From assembly GCF_000142905.1 (NCBI RefSeq), contig NW_013657654.1:124001-188000 (forward strand): a stretch of 64,000 nucleotides of DNA, written 5' to 3'. Under the pieces are notes generated by a model, which saw only the letters and a list, made by a program, of their open reading frames with translations, searched no databases and had not been told where the DNA came from. Positions within the stretch are counted from its first letter, which is position 1, and each line of letters starts with the position of its first letter. The DNA is from Thecamonas trahens ATCC 50062 (lineage: Eukaryota; Protista; Apusomonadida). Below are positions 18,647 through 30,587 of the stretch, one piece after another. The position numbers were made by a program, and so were the translations under genes.

Positions 18647-19049
18647 TCACAGCGGCGGAAGCGAGACCGACTCTAGCATGTGACGATCGAGCGAGTCGCC
18701 GACCTGCGGCTGTGCAGCACCAGCGCCAGCCATGTTCATGAACGCCTGGCAGACCACCAGGTAGGCAGCCTGATAGCTGTGCAGCGCCGCGCAGTTTGAC
18801 CGGAACCGCTGAACCTCGCTCTCCAGTCGTTCCAGCTCTCCGTTGAGACCTACCCAGAGTGGATGTGAGTGGAGGGGAAGGGGGGGGGGGGGGGGGGGGG
18901 GGCAGTACGGAGTACCGGGGNNNNNNNNNNNNNNNNNNNNNNNNNNNNNNNNNNNNNNNNNNNNNNNNNNNNNNNNNNNNNNNNNNNNNNNNNNNNNNNN
19001 NNNNNNNNNNNNNNNNNNNNCCCCACCACACACACACACACACACAAAC

Positions 19050-19277: not shown

Positions 19278-22200
19278 ATGAGCAACGCCCCGACCTTCAA
19301 ACTCCTTCTTGTGGGAGATGGAGGGACAGGCAAGACTGCCTTCCTCAAGGCCATCAACTCCCTTGCCTTTGAGACCAAGTACATTGGTATGCAATCCCCC
19401 TCCCTCCCCCATCTCCTCACCCATCCCCATCCCCATCCCCTTTGTATGCCCAGGCATGTATGCCTGCCTTTCTTTCGGTCACCCTTCTGTCACGCACCTT
19501 GCCACCACCACACCAAGTCGCCTTCCATTGCACCACCACACACACATACACGCACACACGCACACACACATGCACATGCACATACAAACAAACATGCACA
19601 CACTCACATATACCCCACACACACCACACCACACCATCCGCCCCGCATGTAGCCACACTTGGTGTCGAGGTGGATGAGGTCAGGCTGGCGACTTCGTCCG
19701 GCCCGCTGGTGTTCAACGTGTGGGATACGGCCGGACAGGAGAAATTTGGTGGCCTCCGCGATGGGTACTACATCCAGGGCCAAGCGGCGGTGATTTTTGC
19801 TGATGCCTCGTCGAGGAGTTCGGTCAAACATGCAAGGACTTCATGGCTTCGGGATGTGGTCCGAGTCTGTGATGGCATCCCCAAGGTCTTCGTCTTTAAC
19901 AAGACAGACGTGCCCGGTGGTGAGGCCAGGCACGTGGACAAGTTTGATGCTGTCTTTGGGCTCTCGGTCAAGGCCGCGGTGGCGAACAACGACTACGCGT
20001 CGCTCAAGGCTCCTTTCCTCTTCCTCGCCCGAAAGCTCACTGGCATTCGCGATCTCAACCTCGTCGGCGAGTCGTGGTCCAAGTCGGAGGTCCTTGTCGG
20101 GACCATTCTTCCCAGCGATGGCGCAACTAAGGACGAACATCCCAGCTCTGCCGATGCTTTCAGGGTCTCCAGCCCGCAGTCGAGTCCGCAAGCCCTTCCT
20201 CAGGGTGAGGTGTATGGTGATGGCGGCCCAGATGGGATCGACGACATTGTGTCGCCCGCGTCGGGCAACGGCGACAATTTCACTCTCGTTACGGGCTCCA
20301 AGACAAAGTCTGCATCGTCAGGCGGCTTCAAGTTTGGATCTCCCAACGCCGCTGCGCCTAAACCGTCTGGCGGCTTCAAGTTTGGATCGCCCGACGCCGC
20401 TGCGCCTGCATCGTCAGGCGGCTTCAAGTTTGGATCGCCCAACGCCGCCGCACCTGAACCGTCAGGCGGCTTCAAGTTTGGATCGCCCAACGCCACTGCG
20501 CCTAAGCCGTCTGGCGGCTTCAAGTTTGGATCGCCCGACGCCGCTGCGCCTGCATCGTCAGGCGGCTTCAAGTTTGGATCGCCCAACGCCGCCGCACCTG
20601 AACCGTCAGGCGGCTTCAAGTTTGGATCGCCCAACGCCACTGCGCCTAAGCCGTCAGGCGGCTTCAAGTTCGGATCGCCCGACGCCGCTGCGCCTAAGCC
20701 GTCAGGCGGCTTCAAGTTTGGATCGCCCAACGCCGCTGCGCCTAAGCCGTCAGGCGGCTTCAAGTTCGGATCGCCCAACGCCACTGCGCCTAAACCGTAT
20801 AGCAACTTCAAGTTTGGATCGCCCAACAACTTGTCGCCTGGACAACCCAGACACACACCATCGGGACCTTGGAAGTGCCCTGCTTGCGAGGCCAACAACC
20901 CTGCCGACAACAACCACTGCAAACTCTGCACCACTCCGCGGGTCCGCGTGGATCCGCAGTCCAAGCTGGCAAACTGGGGCCCACCGGCCAAACCCAAGGC
21001 AAAAAAGCCGACCAAGACGACCAAGATGGCCGCAAAGAAGAAAACTGCAAAGGCGACAAAAAAAAGGCTGGCAATGGCAAGACCGCCGCGGTCTCGCTTG
21101 CCTCCATCGGCTACCCCGACCCTACTGATGACTCCGACGCCGAGCTGATTCTGGCCGAACAGCGCCAGCTGCTGCAGGAAGCCCCGCCGCCGCCCGCTGT
21201 CTCAGATTTCGAAGCCTACAAGGCCGGTCTGATGGCCCGCCTCGACGCCGAGGCTGCCCGCCGCGGATACACACCCGACGAGAGCGACCGCAAGGCCGTG
21301 CTCAAGCGGCTGCCGGCCAACCTGGGCCAGACAGCGTGGCGGACACAGATCAAGAAGGTACTTCGGCAAGTGCACTCTTGCACCAGCATCGGCACAAGTG
21401 CTGCCCAGCTTGTCCAGGACATCGTGGTGTCGTCGCTCGTCGACGTTGTCACCGCCACCCGTCAGCTGATGGCGAAGCGCGACGAACTCATCGCCAACTC
21501 GCTCGAGACCGACGAACGCTCCGCTGAACTCCCCGACGTCGTTGCTGCTATCCGCCTCGCTGTGCCGGGCGAGCTGGCCATGCACGGTACATCCGAAGCA
21601 ACCAGGGCCGTCATCAAGTTGAAGGCTGCCCAACCGCCAGCCACGCTACGAACCGCATCCACCGCCAGTGGTCTAGTCTTTTCGACCCTCATTACCCGCT
21701 CCGGCATTGCCAAGCGGTTCGGGAGCTCGGTCCTCTCTCTCCCTGATGGAAGCCCTGCGTTTTCTGTCGAGGCCCTCGTCGCCCTTACCGCATTCACCGA
21801 GTACATCACCGCCGAGATCCTCGAGCTGAGTGGTAACGCCGCCCGCGACAACCGCCGTGCCCGTATCAACGAGCGCCACGTTCTTCTCTCCATTTCCTGC
21901 GATGAGGAGCTGAGCAATCACTTCCGCAGCGGCATCATCGCCCGCGGCGGCGTTTTGCCGCACATTCATGTCCGCCTCTTGCCTGTCCACGGCGGCGCGA
22001 ACAACCGCGACATGGAAGAGAATCGGCTCGTCGATGCTGCCCTCGCTACCGCCGGCTCGAGCGGTTCCACCTATCGCCCAGGTACCCTGGCTCTCCGCGA
22101 GATCCGCAGCGCGCAAAAGTCCACCGACCTCGCCATTGCTCCAGACATGTTCCAGGCCGTGGTCCGGGCGTTCTCCGCGATGTCGCTGGCGCTGACATGG

Positions 22201-22376
22201 GCATCTCCGATGAAGCTTACGCAGCCCTGCAGCACGCAGCCGAGGCCCATGTCGTCGAGCTCTTTCACCTCGCCAACGTTGTCGCCATTCACCGCGACTC
22301 GACTCTTGTCGAGCCCAAGGACTTGCAACTCACGAAGCGCATCCAGACAGCGAGCCGTCGCCACTTTTACGCCTAG
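19278..22376 (+). CDS. Fusion protein: Ran-like GTPase, 11 FxFG repeats, RanBP2 zinc finger, H2B-H2A-H3 histone folds (~944 aa); intron 19387-19652; undercalls at 21058-21065 and 22175-22176
   Basis: Ran: FKLLLVGDGGTGKT, YI|ATLGVEV, WDTAGQEKFGGLRDGYYIQ, NKTD, PFLFLARKL. Repeats: GGFKFGSP. Zinc finger: WKCPACEANNPADNNHCKLC. H2B: KKVLRQVH...PGELAMHGTSE. H2A: EYITAEILELSGNAARDN...DEEL...GGVLPHI. H3: YRPGTLALREIR...AIH...PKDLQL. Each domain call is strong; a single polypeptide depends on the A8-to-A9 repair. Confidence 0.8.
20318..20824 (+). repeat. 48-bp coding tandem repeat (SGGFKFGSPxAxAPxx), 11 FKFG motifs
   Basis: Seen directly. Units 2-4 and 5-7 form a 144-bp higher-order duplication. Confidence 0.95.
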
Positions 22377-22377
22377 A

Positions 22378-23757
22378 TCAAACTCTCTCTCCATCGCATT
22401 CACCTCGAGATGCCACCAGCTCGCGCAGAGCGGTCGCCTCTCGCCGCGAGACGCGGTCACACCAGGATGCGTCGATGGCGGTGAGTACAGGAAGCGCAAA
22501 ACTGACCAAGTCAAGCAGCCCGCTACCGGTCACGTCGGTGCAGCAGGAGACGTTGAGAGAAGTGAGCGTAGTGCCCGCGGCTTCAGCAATCGCCCACACA
22601 TCCGAGTCATCCACCGCCGTCCGCGAGAGGTCAACCGCTGTGAGCGCCGGGAGAGGCGTGACCGCCTCGTTGGCCAGCGCGCTACTCCACGCCGTGCTCA
22701 CCATCGCCGGTGTGAGTCGCGGACAGCCCGAGAGCGAGAGCCGGCCGAGTTCGGTCCATGGCGCGAGCCGCGGTCCAACAAAGCTGGTGAGCCAGGCTTC
22801 GTCCACAAAGCCAGCTCGATCAACGACAAGGTTCCGCAGCGCTGGCATCTGCCCAAGCCACTCGCTGCACTCGCTCAGCTCCATGCTCGGCGATAGCCGC
22901 GCGTGCGCCAGTGAAAGCGATGTCACCGTTGGAGGCAGCTGCCACACGTGCAACGCCGTGAGCTCAATGCGATCCAGCGCTAGCACCGCCAGCACCGGTG
23001 TCGTAGCTGCGTTGATCAGGGCAGCCACGCCACTGCAGGTGGCTCGAGGTGCAAACGAGATGTCAAACGCTTCCAATCGCTCCAACTCCGACCACGCACT
23101 CGCCAGCCGGACCAGTGCAGCGTCGCTGAATGCGGTCCGTGAGAGCACCAACCCGATGATTCGATCCGGTGCCGTATGCCTCGCCAGCGCGGCCGCACAT
23201 GCGTTGCCGGCTTGGTCACAACCGTGTAGTGAAATGCGGCTCGGAACCGCACCGTGCTCGACCAGCGTGCCCGAGATGACCGCAGCGAGCGCATCATCGC
23301 TCGCGTTGGAGAGATCGACCAGATCAAGGACCCGCACGTGCGCCAGCAGAGGCGATCGCGCAAGCGCCCACAAGGTAGCGTCCGGTCGGCCATGCGCATC
23401 GCCGTTTATCATCTCCGGCAGCGACAGTACCCGCCAGAGACCCGGATAGCCCGTCGCTGCCGCCCGCAGAGCCCGGCAGCTCCGTCCAGCACGGGCGCGA
23501 TCACGAGGCCCCAGCTCAGCCATGATGGCCACCAGGATCTCCACCGGCAGATCCACTAAGGTCGGAGGCGGAAGAGGCATCCACGCCGAGGCATCGACCG
23601 CCGGCAGTGTAAATGTGTAGCTCACGCTCCCATCCTCAGCGTAGCTCCTCTCTGCCAAGCCCCCGGGCACGACCTGCGGGACCGCCTCCAGCAGCGCCTC
23701 AAGCAGCCGTGGCAGCGGCAGCGTCCGCGCCGCCCACTCTGTCACATCGCTCGCCAT
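22378..23757 (-). CDS. F-box/leucine-rich-repeat (FBXL) protein
   Basis: F-box LVDLPVEILVAIMAELGPRDRARAGRSCRALR...LWRVLSL; cysteine-containing LRRs (LSLSGCPRLT, LNVSCCTDVT, IDASWCDRVS). Confidence 0.87.
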   Translation of the reverse strand: MASDVTEWAARTLPLPRLLEALLEAVPQVVPGGLAERSYAEDGSVSYTFTLPAVDASAWMPLPPPTLVDLPVEILVAIMAELGPRDRARAGRSCRALRAAATGYPGLWRVLSLPEMINGDAHGRPDATLWALARSPLLAHVRVLDLVDLSNASDDALAAVISGTLVEHGAVPSRISLHGCDQAGNACAAALARHTAPDRIIGLVLSRTAFSDAALVRLASAWSELERLEAFDISFAPRATCSGVAALINAATTPVLAVLALDRIELTALHVWQLPPTVTSLSLAHARLSPSMELSECSEWLGQMPALRNLVVDRAGFVDEAWLTSFVGPRLAPWTELGRLSLSGCPRLTPAMVSTAWSSALANEAVTPLPALTAVDLSRTAVDDSDVWAIAEAAGTTLTSLNVSCCTDVTGSGLLDLVSFALPVLTAIDASWCDRVSRREATALRELVASRGECDGERV

Positions 23758-25314: not shown

Positions 25315-26991
25315 ATGGCTCCCGTTTCCTTGCGAGATCGCGTCGGCCAGCGGCAGAGCCCAGGATGGCATTTGGAAGGTCTTGCGCTTCGACGACAGCA
25401 GGCCAGCGCAGCGGACCCCTCACCGCCCACAAGCAAAGCCCTCAGACACACCACTTCGACCGTCGCAGAGCAACAAGGGATGGAAGGCGACGGAAGCGAA
25501 GACCCGGAGGAGCTACGTGCGCAGGTGGAGGTGCTACAGAGCCTGCTAGATCGAAGTCTGGAGGTTGTGGAGGCCATGCTGGGGGAGGCCGAGGTGGCGG
25601 CGGCAAAGGGACGGCGGCGTGGCGGCGAGGTGTCTCGGCCGCGGGACGCACGGGATCTGGCGCACTCATTGGTCTCCTTCCGCAAGCGGCTGCGGGCGGA
25701 GGAGGGCATGCTGGATCGGCTACGGACGGGTCTCATTCCGCTCACAGCCAACAGGGTCAAGTCATCCAATCTCCACGCCCTCTCGGCCATCCTGGCCACC
25801 GCACGCAAGCTCGATGGCCTCGTCAGGCTGGGCGGATCCTTCAAGTACGGCGCCAAGGCCAAGGTCTACGTCGATGCGGTGGTCAAGACTCACTCGGCTG
25901 TCGAGTGGCTCAAGGTCAAGGTCACTCCACCAGTCCCCTTTCACAACATGTACGCCGGCCATGGCCGCGCCTCGTCGTCGTCCATGATCGATCAGGCCCG
26001 CCACCTCCTCGACGCTGCCGCCGAGCACCCACATGGCTTTACCATTCCGGCTGTCGTCTACGTCTTTGTCGGTGGCGTCTCCATCTCGGTCGCCGCAGAC
26101 CTGGAGGCGCTTGGCATTGTTGTTCGCGGCGAGCGGGTCGATCTCGGCCCGCTCGATGGTGTCGCCCACGCCGCTGCCCCGTCACCGTTCATCTGCCCGT
26201 CGACGCTCGCTTCGTTTGGCCTGCTTGACAGCCCGGCCGGCCCGCTCGTCTCGGCGCCAGCTACCACCGTCACCGAGGCCGAGCTGGCTGATCTCATGGC
26301 CGGCGGCAAGATCATCGAGGACGCGCAGGGCAATCGGTATGTTGTCGAGACGATCGAGGAGTATGAGTACGAGTACGACGAGTATGACGAGCCCGAAGGC
26401 AATGACAATGGGGACGTGGTTGGTGCGGCGGCAAGCACGCCGCCGGCCGACAGCAGCGCCGAGATGCTCAATCTGGACGTCTCCGCAATCCTTGCCTATG
26501 TCTCGGACCTCTGCCAGCCTGGCGGCGCCGAGACCGAGTTTGACGACCCGCTCATTGCCAAGCAAGCTGCCAGCGAGCGACAGCAGCGGCAGCTGCCGCT
26601 AATGGAACGGATGATGGCCGGCAAGCGGCTGGTGGTCTGCGAGACCGCACTCGCCTCACTCCAGGCCATCCTCGACACCGTGGCTGGGCCCGGCGAGCGC
26701 GCCCGTGCCGAGGCGCTCCTCGCCAACGTCGCCATTGTTCCCGACGAGCTTTCCGAACGGATGGCGAGCCTCCGCCCGACGCTCCGCATCAAGCCCCGCG
26801 CCCGGGTGGTGTTTGGAGTCGGCGACGCACTGGGCGTCCCGACGCTCACCGCCAACAACGGCTTTGTCCGTGCCGCTGCTCAGCAAGGCTACAACTTTAA
26901 GGCCATTGTCATCATGGCCCGCGCCCTCACCGAGAGCCGCCGCCTCGAGCAGGCCGGCCTTACGCCAGACCTGGATACCGGCTGCGCATAA
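25315..26991 (+). CDS. UPF0415 / C7orf25 (DUF1308) family protein; start may be 25480
   Basis: [13 protein letters not shown]...[47 protein letters not shown]. Confidence 0.85.
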
Positions 26992-29676
26992 AGTCATCAT
27001 CGCCGCTCGACGCCGGCGGCAGCGACGGGTAGAGAGACGGCGCCGCCGGCGCGGCTGCAGACACTGCAGGTTGCGGTGCCGGACGCCGCCCGCCGGTGTT
27101 CCCATGCGAGTCGCTGCTGTACGATCCGCCGCCAACTGGTGCCGACGTGCCCTTGGGCGTCGAGCACATCGAGCACGCGAGCGCGCCGGGGCTGTTGTCA
27201 AAGGTGCAGACCGAGCACGACCAGGTCGGGCCCGACGGCTGCGATGGCACGGATGGCGGCCGCGGCGACGGCCGCGGCGACGGCTGCCGCGGCGCTGCCG
27301 GCGACGGAGTTGCTGTCCTGCCTGAGCGCGCCGAGCCGCACATGGCACACGATTCGCCGCCCGAGTTGGCAAAGGTACATGCCGAGCACGACCACGAGCC
27401 TCCGCCGCCTGATGCTGGGGCCGAGGGTGTCACTGTGGCCCACGGTGGCGACAGCGAGCTCGCTGCCGGAGGTGCAGACGCTGCTGGCGCAGCCGATGAC
27501 AACGACGACGAGCTTGGTGCCGCACCGCCCGACGCTGCGAGCAGTCGCGGGTCGACCCACGACGTCTCGCGGGTCGAGTGATTTGCGTAGTACGGCCGGC
27601 CAAAGTCTGTTGCACACTCCTCCCAGAACTCGGGCATGGGCTTGGAAGCGATGGCGAGGTGATTTCGGACGTGGATGCCGACGAGCTCGCGCATGCGGTC
27701 AGCATCGGCCCGCGAACCCGCCAAGAAGCAGGTGGTAATCTTCTCATCAGCCTTGCCGTCCTTGCGGATCGAGATGCCAAACGCAGCTTTGCCCTTGTGC
27801 TCCTCCACCCGGTAGGCGTCGATCCAACTGATCGGGTAGTGGACCGGCGTCTTGGACCGGAACGACGAGTTGGGGATGACCGTCACACCCGATGGCGAAA
27901 TCTCCAGCACCACCGATGCCGCCACCCACTTGTTTGGCAGCGAGGCTGGAAACTTGACTGCCTCGGGCACGTGCAGCGAGAGGCTCGCCTGGCTCATCGA
28001 GCTAGAGAACGAGGTAGCAAACGGCGAGGTGGCTGATGCTGTCGATGTCGCTGTCCCGTGGTTGTCCGGCACGTCGCCGTCGGCCTGCCGTGCCACAAGC
28101 TCAATCATGGCAGCCTCGAGCACCGATGCGTGGGTGCAGTTGTTGACCGTGTCGCGGAGCTGTGGATAGGACCACTCTGAGATGGTAGCAAGCGGCGGGT
28201 GGCAGTCCGCCTCGTTGCCCATGTCAAACAGGGTACCGTCTTCGAACGCGTCCGGCGCCGGATTGTCGGACGACGAGGATGACGACGAGGACGACGAGGA
28301 CCGCTGCCGCGAGTTCGGCTCGCTGTACGGCATGTGACTCGGATAGTGGGATGGATATGGGCTCGGCATGTCGACGCCCGGGTACGAGGTGGCGTAGGGT
28401 GCATGGGCCGATACCGGCGCTGGCGCCGGCGGGGCGGTTGCCGGCGGCAGTGACGAAATCCGCCGATTTTCGTCGATGAGCTTGAGCATCTCCTGCTCCA
28501 TCTGCGCCCGCTCCGAGAGCCTCAGCTGCTCGAGCTCTTCACGCTCCTGCTTGCGCAGCTGCTCCAGGTGCTGGGCGTACGCTGCGAGCTCGGCAAGCTG
28601 TGCCTGGGTTTTGGACTGTACGGCCCGCATCTGCGCGTCATACCACGCCTGCGCCTCCATCTGGGCCTGGACTTGGTTGGCCTGCGCCTGCTCCAGCTGC
28701 TTCTCATACTGCGCCCGCGCCTGTGCCTCGGCCTGGGTGTGGGCATGCGCCTGTGCCAGCTGCTCCTGATACTGCGCATGTGCCTGCGCTTGCGCCGCTG
28801 CCTGATCGGCCTGCGCCCGCATCATCTGCTCTTTGTACGCAGCCTCGACTTGTGCAGCTGCCTGCGCAGCTGCATGTTCAGCTTGTGCCCTTGCCTGCGC
28901 CTCTGCATGTGCCCGTGCCTGCGCCTCTGCATGTGCCCGTGCCTGCGCTTCTGCCTGCGCCCGTACCTGCGCTTCTGCCTGCGCCCGTGCCTGCGCCTCT
29001 GCCTGTGCCCGTGCCTGCGCCTCTGCCTGTGCCCGTGCCTGTGCCTCTGCCTGCGCCCGTGCCTGCGCCTCTGCCTGTGCCCGTGCCTGCGCCTCTGCCT
29101 GTGCCCGTGCCTGCGCCTCTGCCTGTGCCCGTGCCTGCGCCTCTGCCTGTGGCGTTCATCTGGGCCTCGATTTGGGCGTACTCGTGCTGGACGACCTGCC
29201 CATACAGCGCCTGCGACCTGCCCATACAGCGCCTGCGACTGATCGGTGGCGGCCTTCTGAGCCTCCGCCACCCTAGCATCGTACGCCTGTTTGGCAATCT
29301 CAGTCGGCATGGCCGAAGCAAGGTGGTGCGAGTACTCGGCCTGCGCCTCGGCCATGGCCGTGCGCAGCACGTTCTCGTACAGCGCCTGGGCTTGTCCACG
29401 AGCAGTCTCCACCGCCTGTGCCTGTGCCTGTGCCTGTGCTGCCACCAGCCGAGCCTCAAACGATCCATCATCCGCCGGGGCACCTGCTGGTGGAGCCTGT
29501 GCCTGCACGTGAGCCATACCGGGGTGACCAGCCTGTGCTGCTTGTCCAGCTTGCGACCCTTGCCCGTGCGGACCTCCTCCTCCACCCGCAGCAGCAGCGT
29601 CAGCCAGCATCTGCTTCTGCGCCTGCATGAGCTGCTGCTGCATAAGCAACAGCTTCTCCTGCTCACTACCCGACAT
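26960..29676 (-). CDS. Adaptor protein: Q/A-rich coiled coil, PH/PTB-like domain, WW domain, two NZF zinc fingers; frame breaks at 29196-29239 and ~29150
   Basis: WW: [35 protein letters not shown]: [10 protein letters not shown]...CAMC and [10 protein letters not shown]...CSMC. The N-terminal join is inferred. Confidence 0.75.
28886..29150 (-). repeat. 24-bp coding repeat (AQAEAQAR), about 11 copies
   Basis: Seen directly: GCCTGCGCCTCTGCCTGTGCCCGT units on the + strand. Confidence 0.9.
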
Positions 29677-29786
29677 GTTCCTTCCTCTTCCTCCCTTCTG
29701 CGTCAGGTATACTCCCTTCTCCTTCCCCCCTCCCCTTCCGCCGCCTGCTACACCTTCCATGCTCTCCTCTCTTAGCGGAACGATGG

Positions 29787-30030
29787 TTCGTTCGTTCGTT
29801 CGCTCGTTCATGCGTTCGTTCGTTCATGCGTTCGTTCATTCGTTCATTCATTCGTTCGTTCGTTCATGCGTTCGTTCGTTCATTCATTCATTCGTTCATT
29901 CACTCATTCGCTCGTTCATTCGTTCGCTCGTTATTCATTCATTCATTCGTTCGCTCGTTCGTTCGTTCATTCGTTCGTTCGTTCATGCGTTCATTCATTC
30001 ATTCGCTCGTTCATTCGTTCGTTCGTTCGC
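29787..30030. repeat. (TTCG/TTCA)n tetranucleotide microsatellite between divergent genes
   Basis: Seen directly. Confidence 0.95.
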
Positions 30031-30587
30031 TTCTGAATCGCAAATTGCTCGTCACATTCGTCGATTCCATTACCTTGTCACAACTGCTTCTTCGTATCCC
30101 GCCCTTCCCTTCCCCTCCCTTCCCCACCCCAACCCCAATATTACGCATGTGCGAAGTGGGGACTGATCGGAGTAGAGTCATTGCGCTGATACACCCTCGC
30201 AAACCATGATCGCCTCGTTCTCGCTGCATAGAACAAATACCACCACCGCATTCCCGTAGATAGAGCCCGCTCCAAGGCCCACCCCCCAAGCAGACCGCCC
30301 CCCCCCAGGCAGACCAGGGGACATGCCATCTACCGCATCCAGACTCACATCGGTACGTGGGAAGTAGAAGGTGATACAAACATTGCATATCACCCCCTCT
30401 CCAGATTCCACATCCCAGCTCCACAAACACGATCCTTGGGCTTCTCCGTACCCCCCTCCCCGATGGCCACATCGACGGGCGCGCCGAACCCGAATCCAAC
30501 CAAGGCGACTCGACAACAAGGACAGGGGACAGCCAGGGGCAAGCCGGGCACGTCACCACCCCACCCGACCTACACAAGGGGGGAAAC

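Follow-up and report, generated by a model that had tools for sequence, protein, structure and literature searches.

Structure of the Ran-histone fusion gene

The analysed window, the whole 64-kb stretch of Thecamonas trahens DNA, carries on its forward strand a gene for a 944-aa fusion protein that runs from the ATG at 19278 to the stop at 22376, in the order Ran-like GTPase, 11 FxFG repeats, RanBP2 zinc finger, Lys-rich stretch, helical segment and H2B-H2A-H3. The tandem histone triplet at 21337..22376 of the original prediction is no separate gene but the last 346 aa of this frame; the feature is real and larger than first noted.

All parts of the gene lie on the plus strand. Exon 1 (19278..19386), which matches the start of the public model XP_013757355.1, holds the start codon, the P-loop (G1) of Ran and the greater part of switch I. 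It is followed by a 266-nt intron with GT and AG ends (19387..19652), the splicing of which was detected in one contig of the public run X2 (depth 3) joining 19283-19385 to 19652-19752. Because of this join and the absence of X2 coverage at 19422-19643 and beyond 22418, we read run X2, labelled 'DNA?', as RNA. The remaining Ran-like G domain with switch II, the G4 NKxD motif and G5 lies at 19653..20077, the FG array at 20309..20833 (10.7 copies of a 48-nt, 16-aa unit), the RanBP2-type C4 zinc finger at 20864..20935, the Lys-rich tail-like or NLS-like stretch at 20981..21072 and a conserved acidic/helical segment, identical to the metagenomic relative in 25 of 76 positions, at 21094..21336. The histone module comprises an H2B-like fold (21337..21621), an H2A-like fold with docking domain (21643..21990) and an H3-like alphaN plus fold to the stop (22063..22376, the fold ending at 22349).

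The 944-aa frame was obtained with one undetermined base inserted after 21057 and one after 22168. In the assembly as deposited, the frame 20869-22896 covers both the H2B-like and the H2A-like fold but only the first part of H3; a different frame, which ends at 22376, carries the remainder. One base is missing after 21057, within the Lys-rich stretch, where three of three covering public runs (X1, X2, X15) have an extra base; this error conceals the join of the histone triplet to the Ran/FG part. The second missing base, after 22168, lies within H3 and is present in all six covering runs (X1, X8, X10, X11, X2, X15). In the assembly, H3 breaks at about 22168, at variance with the earlier description.

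The stored protein P0045, labelled as Thecamonas trahens XP_013757355.1, 'GTP-binding nuclear protein ran/tc4' (893 aa), matched at 100% identity over 95% of the query. This model masks both missing bases by two predicted false introns, one of which removes the Lys-rich stretch, and X2 contigs are unspliced across both (20747-21113 and 21600-22395). The public gene model is wrong at these two places. No single contig of the covering public runs bridges Ran to H3, since the FG repeat array breaks contigs. The RNA runs X15, X16 and X20 cover small parts of the gene, and their signal is mostly canonical Ran or H2A; canonical-looking Ran and H2A sequences are also present as loose ends in the T. 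trahens run X2.

Among the 46 window ORFs scanned, those with matches are cellular genes (for instance HAUS4, CTC1, ThrRS, Bud13 and kinases), and none matched a viral hallmark family. The GC3 of the fusion gene (0.70-0.74) is inside the range of its neighbours (0.67-0.82). The absence of H4, claimed before, holds for the gene and for the rest of the 64-kb window. A weak H4 match at 29776 is a microsatellite.

Ran-like domain, FG array, zinc finger and Lys-rich stretch

The best matches of the GTPase domain are Ran (about 49% identity over 142 aa), and the G1-G5 motifs and the Ran-specific switch II are kept, with Val replacing Ala in G5. In both the window protein and the relative P0046, the GTP motifs, T42, Q69 and switch II are retained, no residue of the segment W64-I81 differs from mammalian Ran, and alpha3 still has W104, R106, D107 and R110. 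The domain resembles canonical Ran (Gsp1) in its G1-G4 motifs, T42, Q69 and switch II, and differs from it by being fused and by the low identity; the K134-K142 basic patch and the C-terminal acidic tail are lost in both proteins.

The array consists of FG repeats with hydrophilic spacers, as in FG nucleoporins (Pfam Nucleoporin_FG, E 6e-6, under the curated cut-off), and the zinc finger matched Pfam Zn_ribbon_RanBP at E 6e-6 with 25.9 bits, under the cut-off of 27. Nucleoporins of the Nup153/Nup358 type carry FxFG repeats beside RanBP2 zinc fingers, and the two elements adjoin here as well; unlike those nucleoporins, the fusion has one finger, absent from the relative P0046, and no scaffold or anchor domain was seen. 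The Lys-rich stretch has a net charge of +14 and lies about 90 aa upstream of the H2B fold. The description of the triplet as tail-less is therefore right for H3 but overlooks this tail-like stretch. The original prediction also overlooked the main feature of the locus, the fusion to Ran and FG repeats.

Histone module and its predicted H4 partner

Pfam, the structural model and fold matching agree on H2B, H2A and H3 folds in series, and the order predicted from the DNA (H2B, H2A with docking domain, linker, H3 alphaN plus fold) was confirmed by these matches and their coordinates. The helices before H2B were considered as a degenerate H4 and rejected (negative HMM scores, hhalign probability 0.2%). 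Identity to canonical-type histones is at most 49% for H2A and 45% for H3.

The model of the relative's histone module (pLDDT 83.9, pTM 0.73) matched single-chain H2B-H2A with Z 25.5 (rmsd 2.0, 188 aligned) and H3 with Z 10.8 (rmsd 3.4, 98 aligned); the full-length relative, folded from 3 sequences, gave pLDDT 40 and was set aside. The H2B-H2A part is predicted to fold as an intramolecular dimer, and the H3 part is predicted to take host H4. The predicted complex of the H3 fold with H4, for which a vertebrate-type stand-in from a stored protein was used, scored 0.91 against 0.00 for the best control. Runs agreed to 89% or more, the partner pLDDT was 85 or more, and the model places H4 on both H3 and the H2A docking domain. 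The mark for H4 binding is reached by 51 of 78 solved pairs and 2 of 108 mismatched pairs, and the pass may reflect likeness to solved nucleosomes or memory of a textbook pair.

Two surfaces of the module were compared at the positions taken, after nucleosome structures, as the acidic-patch and DNA-facing residues. The acidic patch is complete (8/8) in the window protein, H2B E105 and E113 included, and in the relative. Compact triplets keep 6-8 of the 8 positions too, and no helix is better conserved than the one with the patch; a complete patch is therefore nothing unusual, and the contrast is on the DNA side. The window protein and the relative keep 8/25 and 9/25 DNA-facing basic positions, whereas all 15 compact triplets compared keep 14-21/25; the folds carry a net charge of +3 and +4, those of compact triplets +9 to +29, and the whole histone module has a net charge of +1 and 0, respectively. 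Insertions are found at H2A L1 and at the L2 DNA-contact loop of H2B.

The residues of the H3-H3' bundle (H113, D123, L126, I130) are kept in the window copy and the arginines at the H3 R63, R83 and R116 positions are lost, both as first described; in the relative, positions 113 and 126 are Thr and Ala. Of the loose nucleosome-like particle that had been suggested, H4 pairing is predicted, but a DNA-wrapping particle is weakly supported in view of the basic positions, the fold charge and the Thr that replaces H113 in the relative.

Relatives and other Ran-histone fusions

The profile search spanned 1.84 billion representatives, and among its best 150 rows both parts of the fusion were high-scoring in two clusters only. 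The full architecture is found in only two independent species-level examples, Thecamonas and a metagenomic relative (P0046, P0047 and P0053) encoded on three ENA contigs of 3.9-4.5 kb. The relative has an open frame with the same order of Ran, FG and H2B-H2A-H3, carries the basic stretch and the helical segment, and is without the zinc finger; its repeats are GFG-rich and of different sequence from the Thecamonas array. It is 42% identical to the Thecamonas protein overall (Ran 74/168, H2B 39/94, H2A 67/116, H3 41/94). The metagenome contigs differ in the histone folds by six single bases, three silent and three residue-changing (part of 11 differences classed), numbers too small to demonstrate selection.

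Three other metagenomic protein families likewise have Ran fused to H2B-H2A folds. P0137, P0335 and P0336 make up the first, P0336 with an ARM-like N-terminus judged by eye and without a Pfam match there; P0202 has three Ran domains, and the P0049 family has a C-terminal Ran fragment. Related histone repeats bear varied partners (ubiquitin, RING, SAM, R3H, tandem Ran). T. trahens has a second fused gene, the H2B-H2A doublet P0001 (XP_013762701.1), which is matched by a loose end in run X2.

The metagenome scan with Ran-derived patterns returned 80 loci, all Ran genes, none with Ran and histone in one ORF; 4 of 126 scanned loci carry Ran and histone on separate ORFs. IMG/VR scans with the window module, P0007, P0046 and P0189, which detect close relatives only, found no relative. 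On the viral contigs L090-L092 a small GTPase gene adjoins separate H2B and H2A genes.

Ancestry of the histone module

Trees of concatenated H2B-H2A-H3 were unrooted and built without archaeal histones by quick searches with SH-aLRT supports. Excluded beforehand were 49 rows that were near-duplicates or mis-predicted and 11 that were partial or strongly divergent. The labels 'viral-type' and 'protist' are inferred, most 'viral-type' labels from architecture. The two Ran fusions pair in the trees (95-98) and group with the T. trahens doublet and other repeats (P0001/P0301 and P0189/P0296) at 94 under C20 and 97 in another tree, the grouping being unresolved in a third. Their group sits beside canonical histones and other long repeats, apart from compact repeats (99, 89); the compact repeats include IMG/VR loci, and a single viral locus lies outside them in one tree. 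Trees of H3 by itself and of H2B-H2A by itself again bring together a comparable set of long, low-charge repeats (83-84), a grouping that shared loss of constraint could also produce. The join of P0137 and P0202 was flagged as long-branch, and the Ran tree, dominated by long branches, does not tell one origin of the Ran-histone fusions from several.

The AU test rejected a clade of the fusions with 12 compact H2B-H2A-H3 triplets (p=0.008; triplets alone p=0.37) and a clade with canonical-like rows (p=0.018; p=0.002 with three canonical rows), and gave p=0.093 for a clade with all compact viral-type repeats in unrooted trees with mostly inferred labels. Of the two origins first offered, domestication of a viral repeat is disfavoured if the known viral H2B-H2A-H3 triplets are meant as the source; the result for all viral-type repeats is compatible with an older viral source. 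The other offered origin, an independent cellular-side fusion requiring host H4, is supported by the H4 prediction and by the best trees, which group the module with the T. trahens doublet and low-charge repeats. We infer a cellular-side assembly from a divergent histone-repeat family and a Ran paralogue.

The module resembles the Nucleocytoviricota triplets (marine iridovirus MAGs, LCMAC102; PMC11222145, PMC9145170) in its domain order, the short H2B-H2A linker and the lack of an H4 fold and of an H3 tail. Unlike the viral triplets, it forms the C-terminal third of a Ran fusion that is cellular, intron-bearing and near-neutral, without a linked H4 gene in the window, it has lost the basic DNA-binding rim (8-9/25 against 14-21/25), and the protein has 944 aa where stand-alone compact triplets have 314-403 aa.

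Descent of the histone module, or of the whole gene, from a domesticated giant-virus gene would be compatible with any of the functions discussed below, and we consider it unlikely. The shared domain order speaks for it, as do the best viral structural match (the LCMAC102 triplet, TM 0.60/0.73), the virus clusters that are the Atlas structural neighbours of the histone part, the GTPase gene beside histone genes on L090-L092, and the AU results by which the clade with all compact viral-type repeats was retained and the canonical-like one was not. Against it stand the rejected clade with the 12 compact triplets, the spliceosomal intron, a GC3 within the neighbours' range, the absence of viral hallmark families among the 46 ORFs and the lack of a close relative in IMG/VR.

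Discussion

FG repeats are known ligands of karyopherins, as RanBP2 fingers are of Ran. According to PMC10629556, Kap114/Imp9 holds Ran mainly by switch 1, switch 2 and alpha3 and simultaneously holds H2A-H2B by the acidic patch in one ternary complex; RCC1 is the Ran exchange factor (PMC10629556) and binds the acidic patch (PMC6499780).

We tentatively suggest, at somewhat less than even probability, that the fusion mimics a nucleosome face, binding and buffering karyopherins and RCC1, and is not a DNA spool; the comparison of surfaces points this way, as the karyopherin- and RCC1-facing surfaces are kept and most DNA-facing basic positions are lost. The H2B-H2A part would be an intramolecular dimer and the H3 part would take host H4. 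Ran switch II/alpha3, the FG repeats and the H2A-H2B acidic patch would serve as ligands of importin-9/Kap114-type karyopherins, and Ran and the acidic patch would both be ligands of RCC1. Since one chain holds this ligand set, high-avidity binding of these factors is proposed, and the fusion may act as an adaptor or buffer for karyopherins and RCC1, at the pore or in the nucleoplasm, alongside the ordinary Ran and histones of the cell. The retained Ran switch II/alpha3 and acidic patch are those of the RanGTP-Kap114/importin-9-H2A-H2B and RCC1-nucleosome-Ran complexes (PMC10629556 and PMC6499780); those complexes are formed by separate proteins, whereas the fusion would offer the surfaces in one chain. 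The Lys-rich stretch could provide DNA binding, which would count against the mimic.

The double-histone-fold domains of Sos and ABTB2 (PMC13088155) are a known cellular parallel, with an H2B-like and then an H2A-like fold forming a pseudodimer in a multidomain protein; these folds serve non-nucleosomal interactions, and Sos acts on a small GTPase. The structure 1q9c matched the model of the relative's module (Z 18.9, rmsd 2.2, 162 aligned). Unlike Sos/ABTB2, the fusion has three folds including H3, is closer to core histones, carries the GTPase itself and has FG repeats, and no DH/PH/RasGEF, BTB or ankyrin match was detected outside the folds.

Alternatively, the protein may be a giant histone variant that enters nucleosomes or hemisomes with host H4, with Ran, the FG repeats and the zinc finger tethering loci to pores or seeding pore assembly on chromatin. 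We give this a low probability. The kept docking domain and H4-binding surface, the modelled position of H4 on H3 and the docking domain, the H3-H3' bundle of the window copy and the Lys-rich stretch would suit such a variant. ELYS connects the acidic patch with pore assembly, and viral H2B-H2A-H3 with H4 gives nucleosome-like particles (bioRxiv 2024.12.06.627149). However, the folds have lost two out of three DNA-facing basic residues, the module is near neutral, insertions lie at both H2A L1 and H2B L2, and the relative has replaced H113 and L126.

Effectors of pathogens target Ran, FG nucleoporins and the nucleosome face. The chain could accordingly be a multi-bait decoy of defence, displaying all three and soaking up or sensing effectors of giant viruses or intracellular bacteria, which we regard as improbable. 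The retention of protein-facing and loss of DNA-facing surfaces, the varied partners on related repeats, the patchy occurrence of the fusions and their fast divergence (long branches) are consistent with a decoy; but the GTPase aside, the protein has no effector or signalling domain, and its neighbours are housekeeping genes. It is very improbable that the gene is a pseudogene or a chimera without function, or an artefact of assembly joined at the FG array, since the two assembly frameshifts, the low contig depth, the lack of a repeat-bridging contig and the too few histone-fold differences are outweighed by the absence of both frameshifts from all covering runs, the spliced intron and a relative at 42% identity with identical order and an open frame on three contigs.

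It is possible, although doubtful, that the gene belongs to an undescribed protist family in which several histone folds are fused and which is distinct from both canonical histones and the compact viral type; its members would have lost DNA binding and been joined repeatedly to nuclear-transport modules (Ran, FG repeats and an ARM domain). The Thecamonas gene would then be the first named triplet and a single-chain mimic of RCC1/importin-9 ligands, and by uniting a nucleosome face with a loadable Ran it could generate or buffer a RanGTP signal at a distance from chromatin.

Histone folds are also fused to another domain in macroH2A. Fused core-histone pairs (HSIH) have been proposed in animals (Miyake 2026, as cited in PMC13088155). 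The Thecamonas protein differs from macroH2A and HSIH of animals in being a triplet, of 40-50% identity, in a protist and with Ran, and from canonical core histones in its fused gene, low identity and position outside the canonical-like clade (p=0.018).

No title or abstract describing this gene or a Ran-histone fusion was found in a search that reached subscription journals only in small part, and the accessible part of the 2026 double-histone-fold review (PMC13088155) lists no protist triplet or Ran fusion and gave 0 matches to Thecamonas in a term search. The Ran-histone fusion is apparently undescribed, its domain content being visible in public annotation under a record named only as Ran. 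The supplements of bioRxiv 2021.11.30.470311 cover Thecamonas and may list the gene.

The locus provides a histone triplet that is read-supported, spliced and conserved, in a eukaryote available in culture, and shows that the order H2B-H2A-H3 is not confined to viruses. The gene is a cellular data point for the question of where histone repeats come from, be they viral or stem-eukaryote relics or products of renewed fusion. With Ran and the nucleosome face in one gene, their coupling via RCC1 and importin-9 becomes testable with a single natural protein.

Ran–histone fusions in other proteins

We detected Ran joined to histone folds in several stored proteins. P0336, P0137 and P0335 (ENA proteins) carry an H2B-H2A doublet fused to a near-canonical Ran, and in P0336, the longest of the three, the first ~450 aa resemble importin-alpha-type ARM repeats as judged by eye, with no Pfam match in this part. 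P0202 combines H2B-H2A with three tandem Ran domains, and the P0049 family (12 cluster members) has a Ran C-terminal fragment, SAM and H2B-H2A-H4-H3.

Ran was also found fused to FG-rich (nucleoporin-type repeat) sequence in other proteins: four Ran domains in P0070 (Dictyostelium firmibasis), an HMG box joined to Ran in P0163, and the order Ran-FG-Ran in P0327.

On the viral contig L091 (1391-2884), a degenerate small GTPase gene immediately adjoins H2B and H2A genes, which are transcribed divergently; the viral contigs L090 and L092 have the same arrangement. An H2B gene lies ~1 kb or less from a canonical Ran gene on the metagenome contig L031.

Histone doublets and longer fusions

T. trahens has a second fused histone gene, XP_013762701.1 (P0001), which encodes an H2B-H2A doublet whose acidic patch is complete; its relative P0301 is 62% identical. 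P0004, P0005, P0306 and P0324 are H2B-H2A doublets as well, one of them labelled Balamuthia mandrillaris. Ubiquitin is carried by P0005 and P0306, and FG-rich linkers are present in P0005 and P0324.

Long multi-histone-fold proteins from metagenome contigs (P0189, P0296, P0203, P0211, P0218, P0220, P0226, P0240, P0259, P0279, P0289, P0305, P0035 and P0040) tend to cluster with one another in trees. Their fold orders include H2B-H2A-H4-H3, H4-H2B-H2A-H3 and H2B-H2A-H3, the charge is low in those measured, and some contain RING or R3H domains.

Other features of the window

A 100-N assembly gap (18921-19020), flanked by poly-G and CA repeats, lies ~260 nt upstream of the fusion-gene start codon; the fusion gene may have an additional 5' exon. 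A weak H4 profile match (29776-30036) was rejected as spurious, caused by a four-base microsatellite. Near the fusion gene, a minus-strand gene (26960-28825) encodes a protein with a WW domain and a RanBP2 zinc finger; this finger shows no close similarity to that of the fusion gene.
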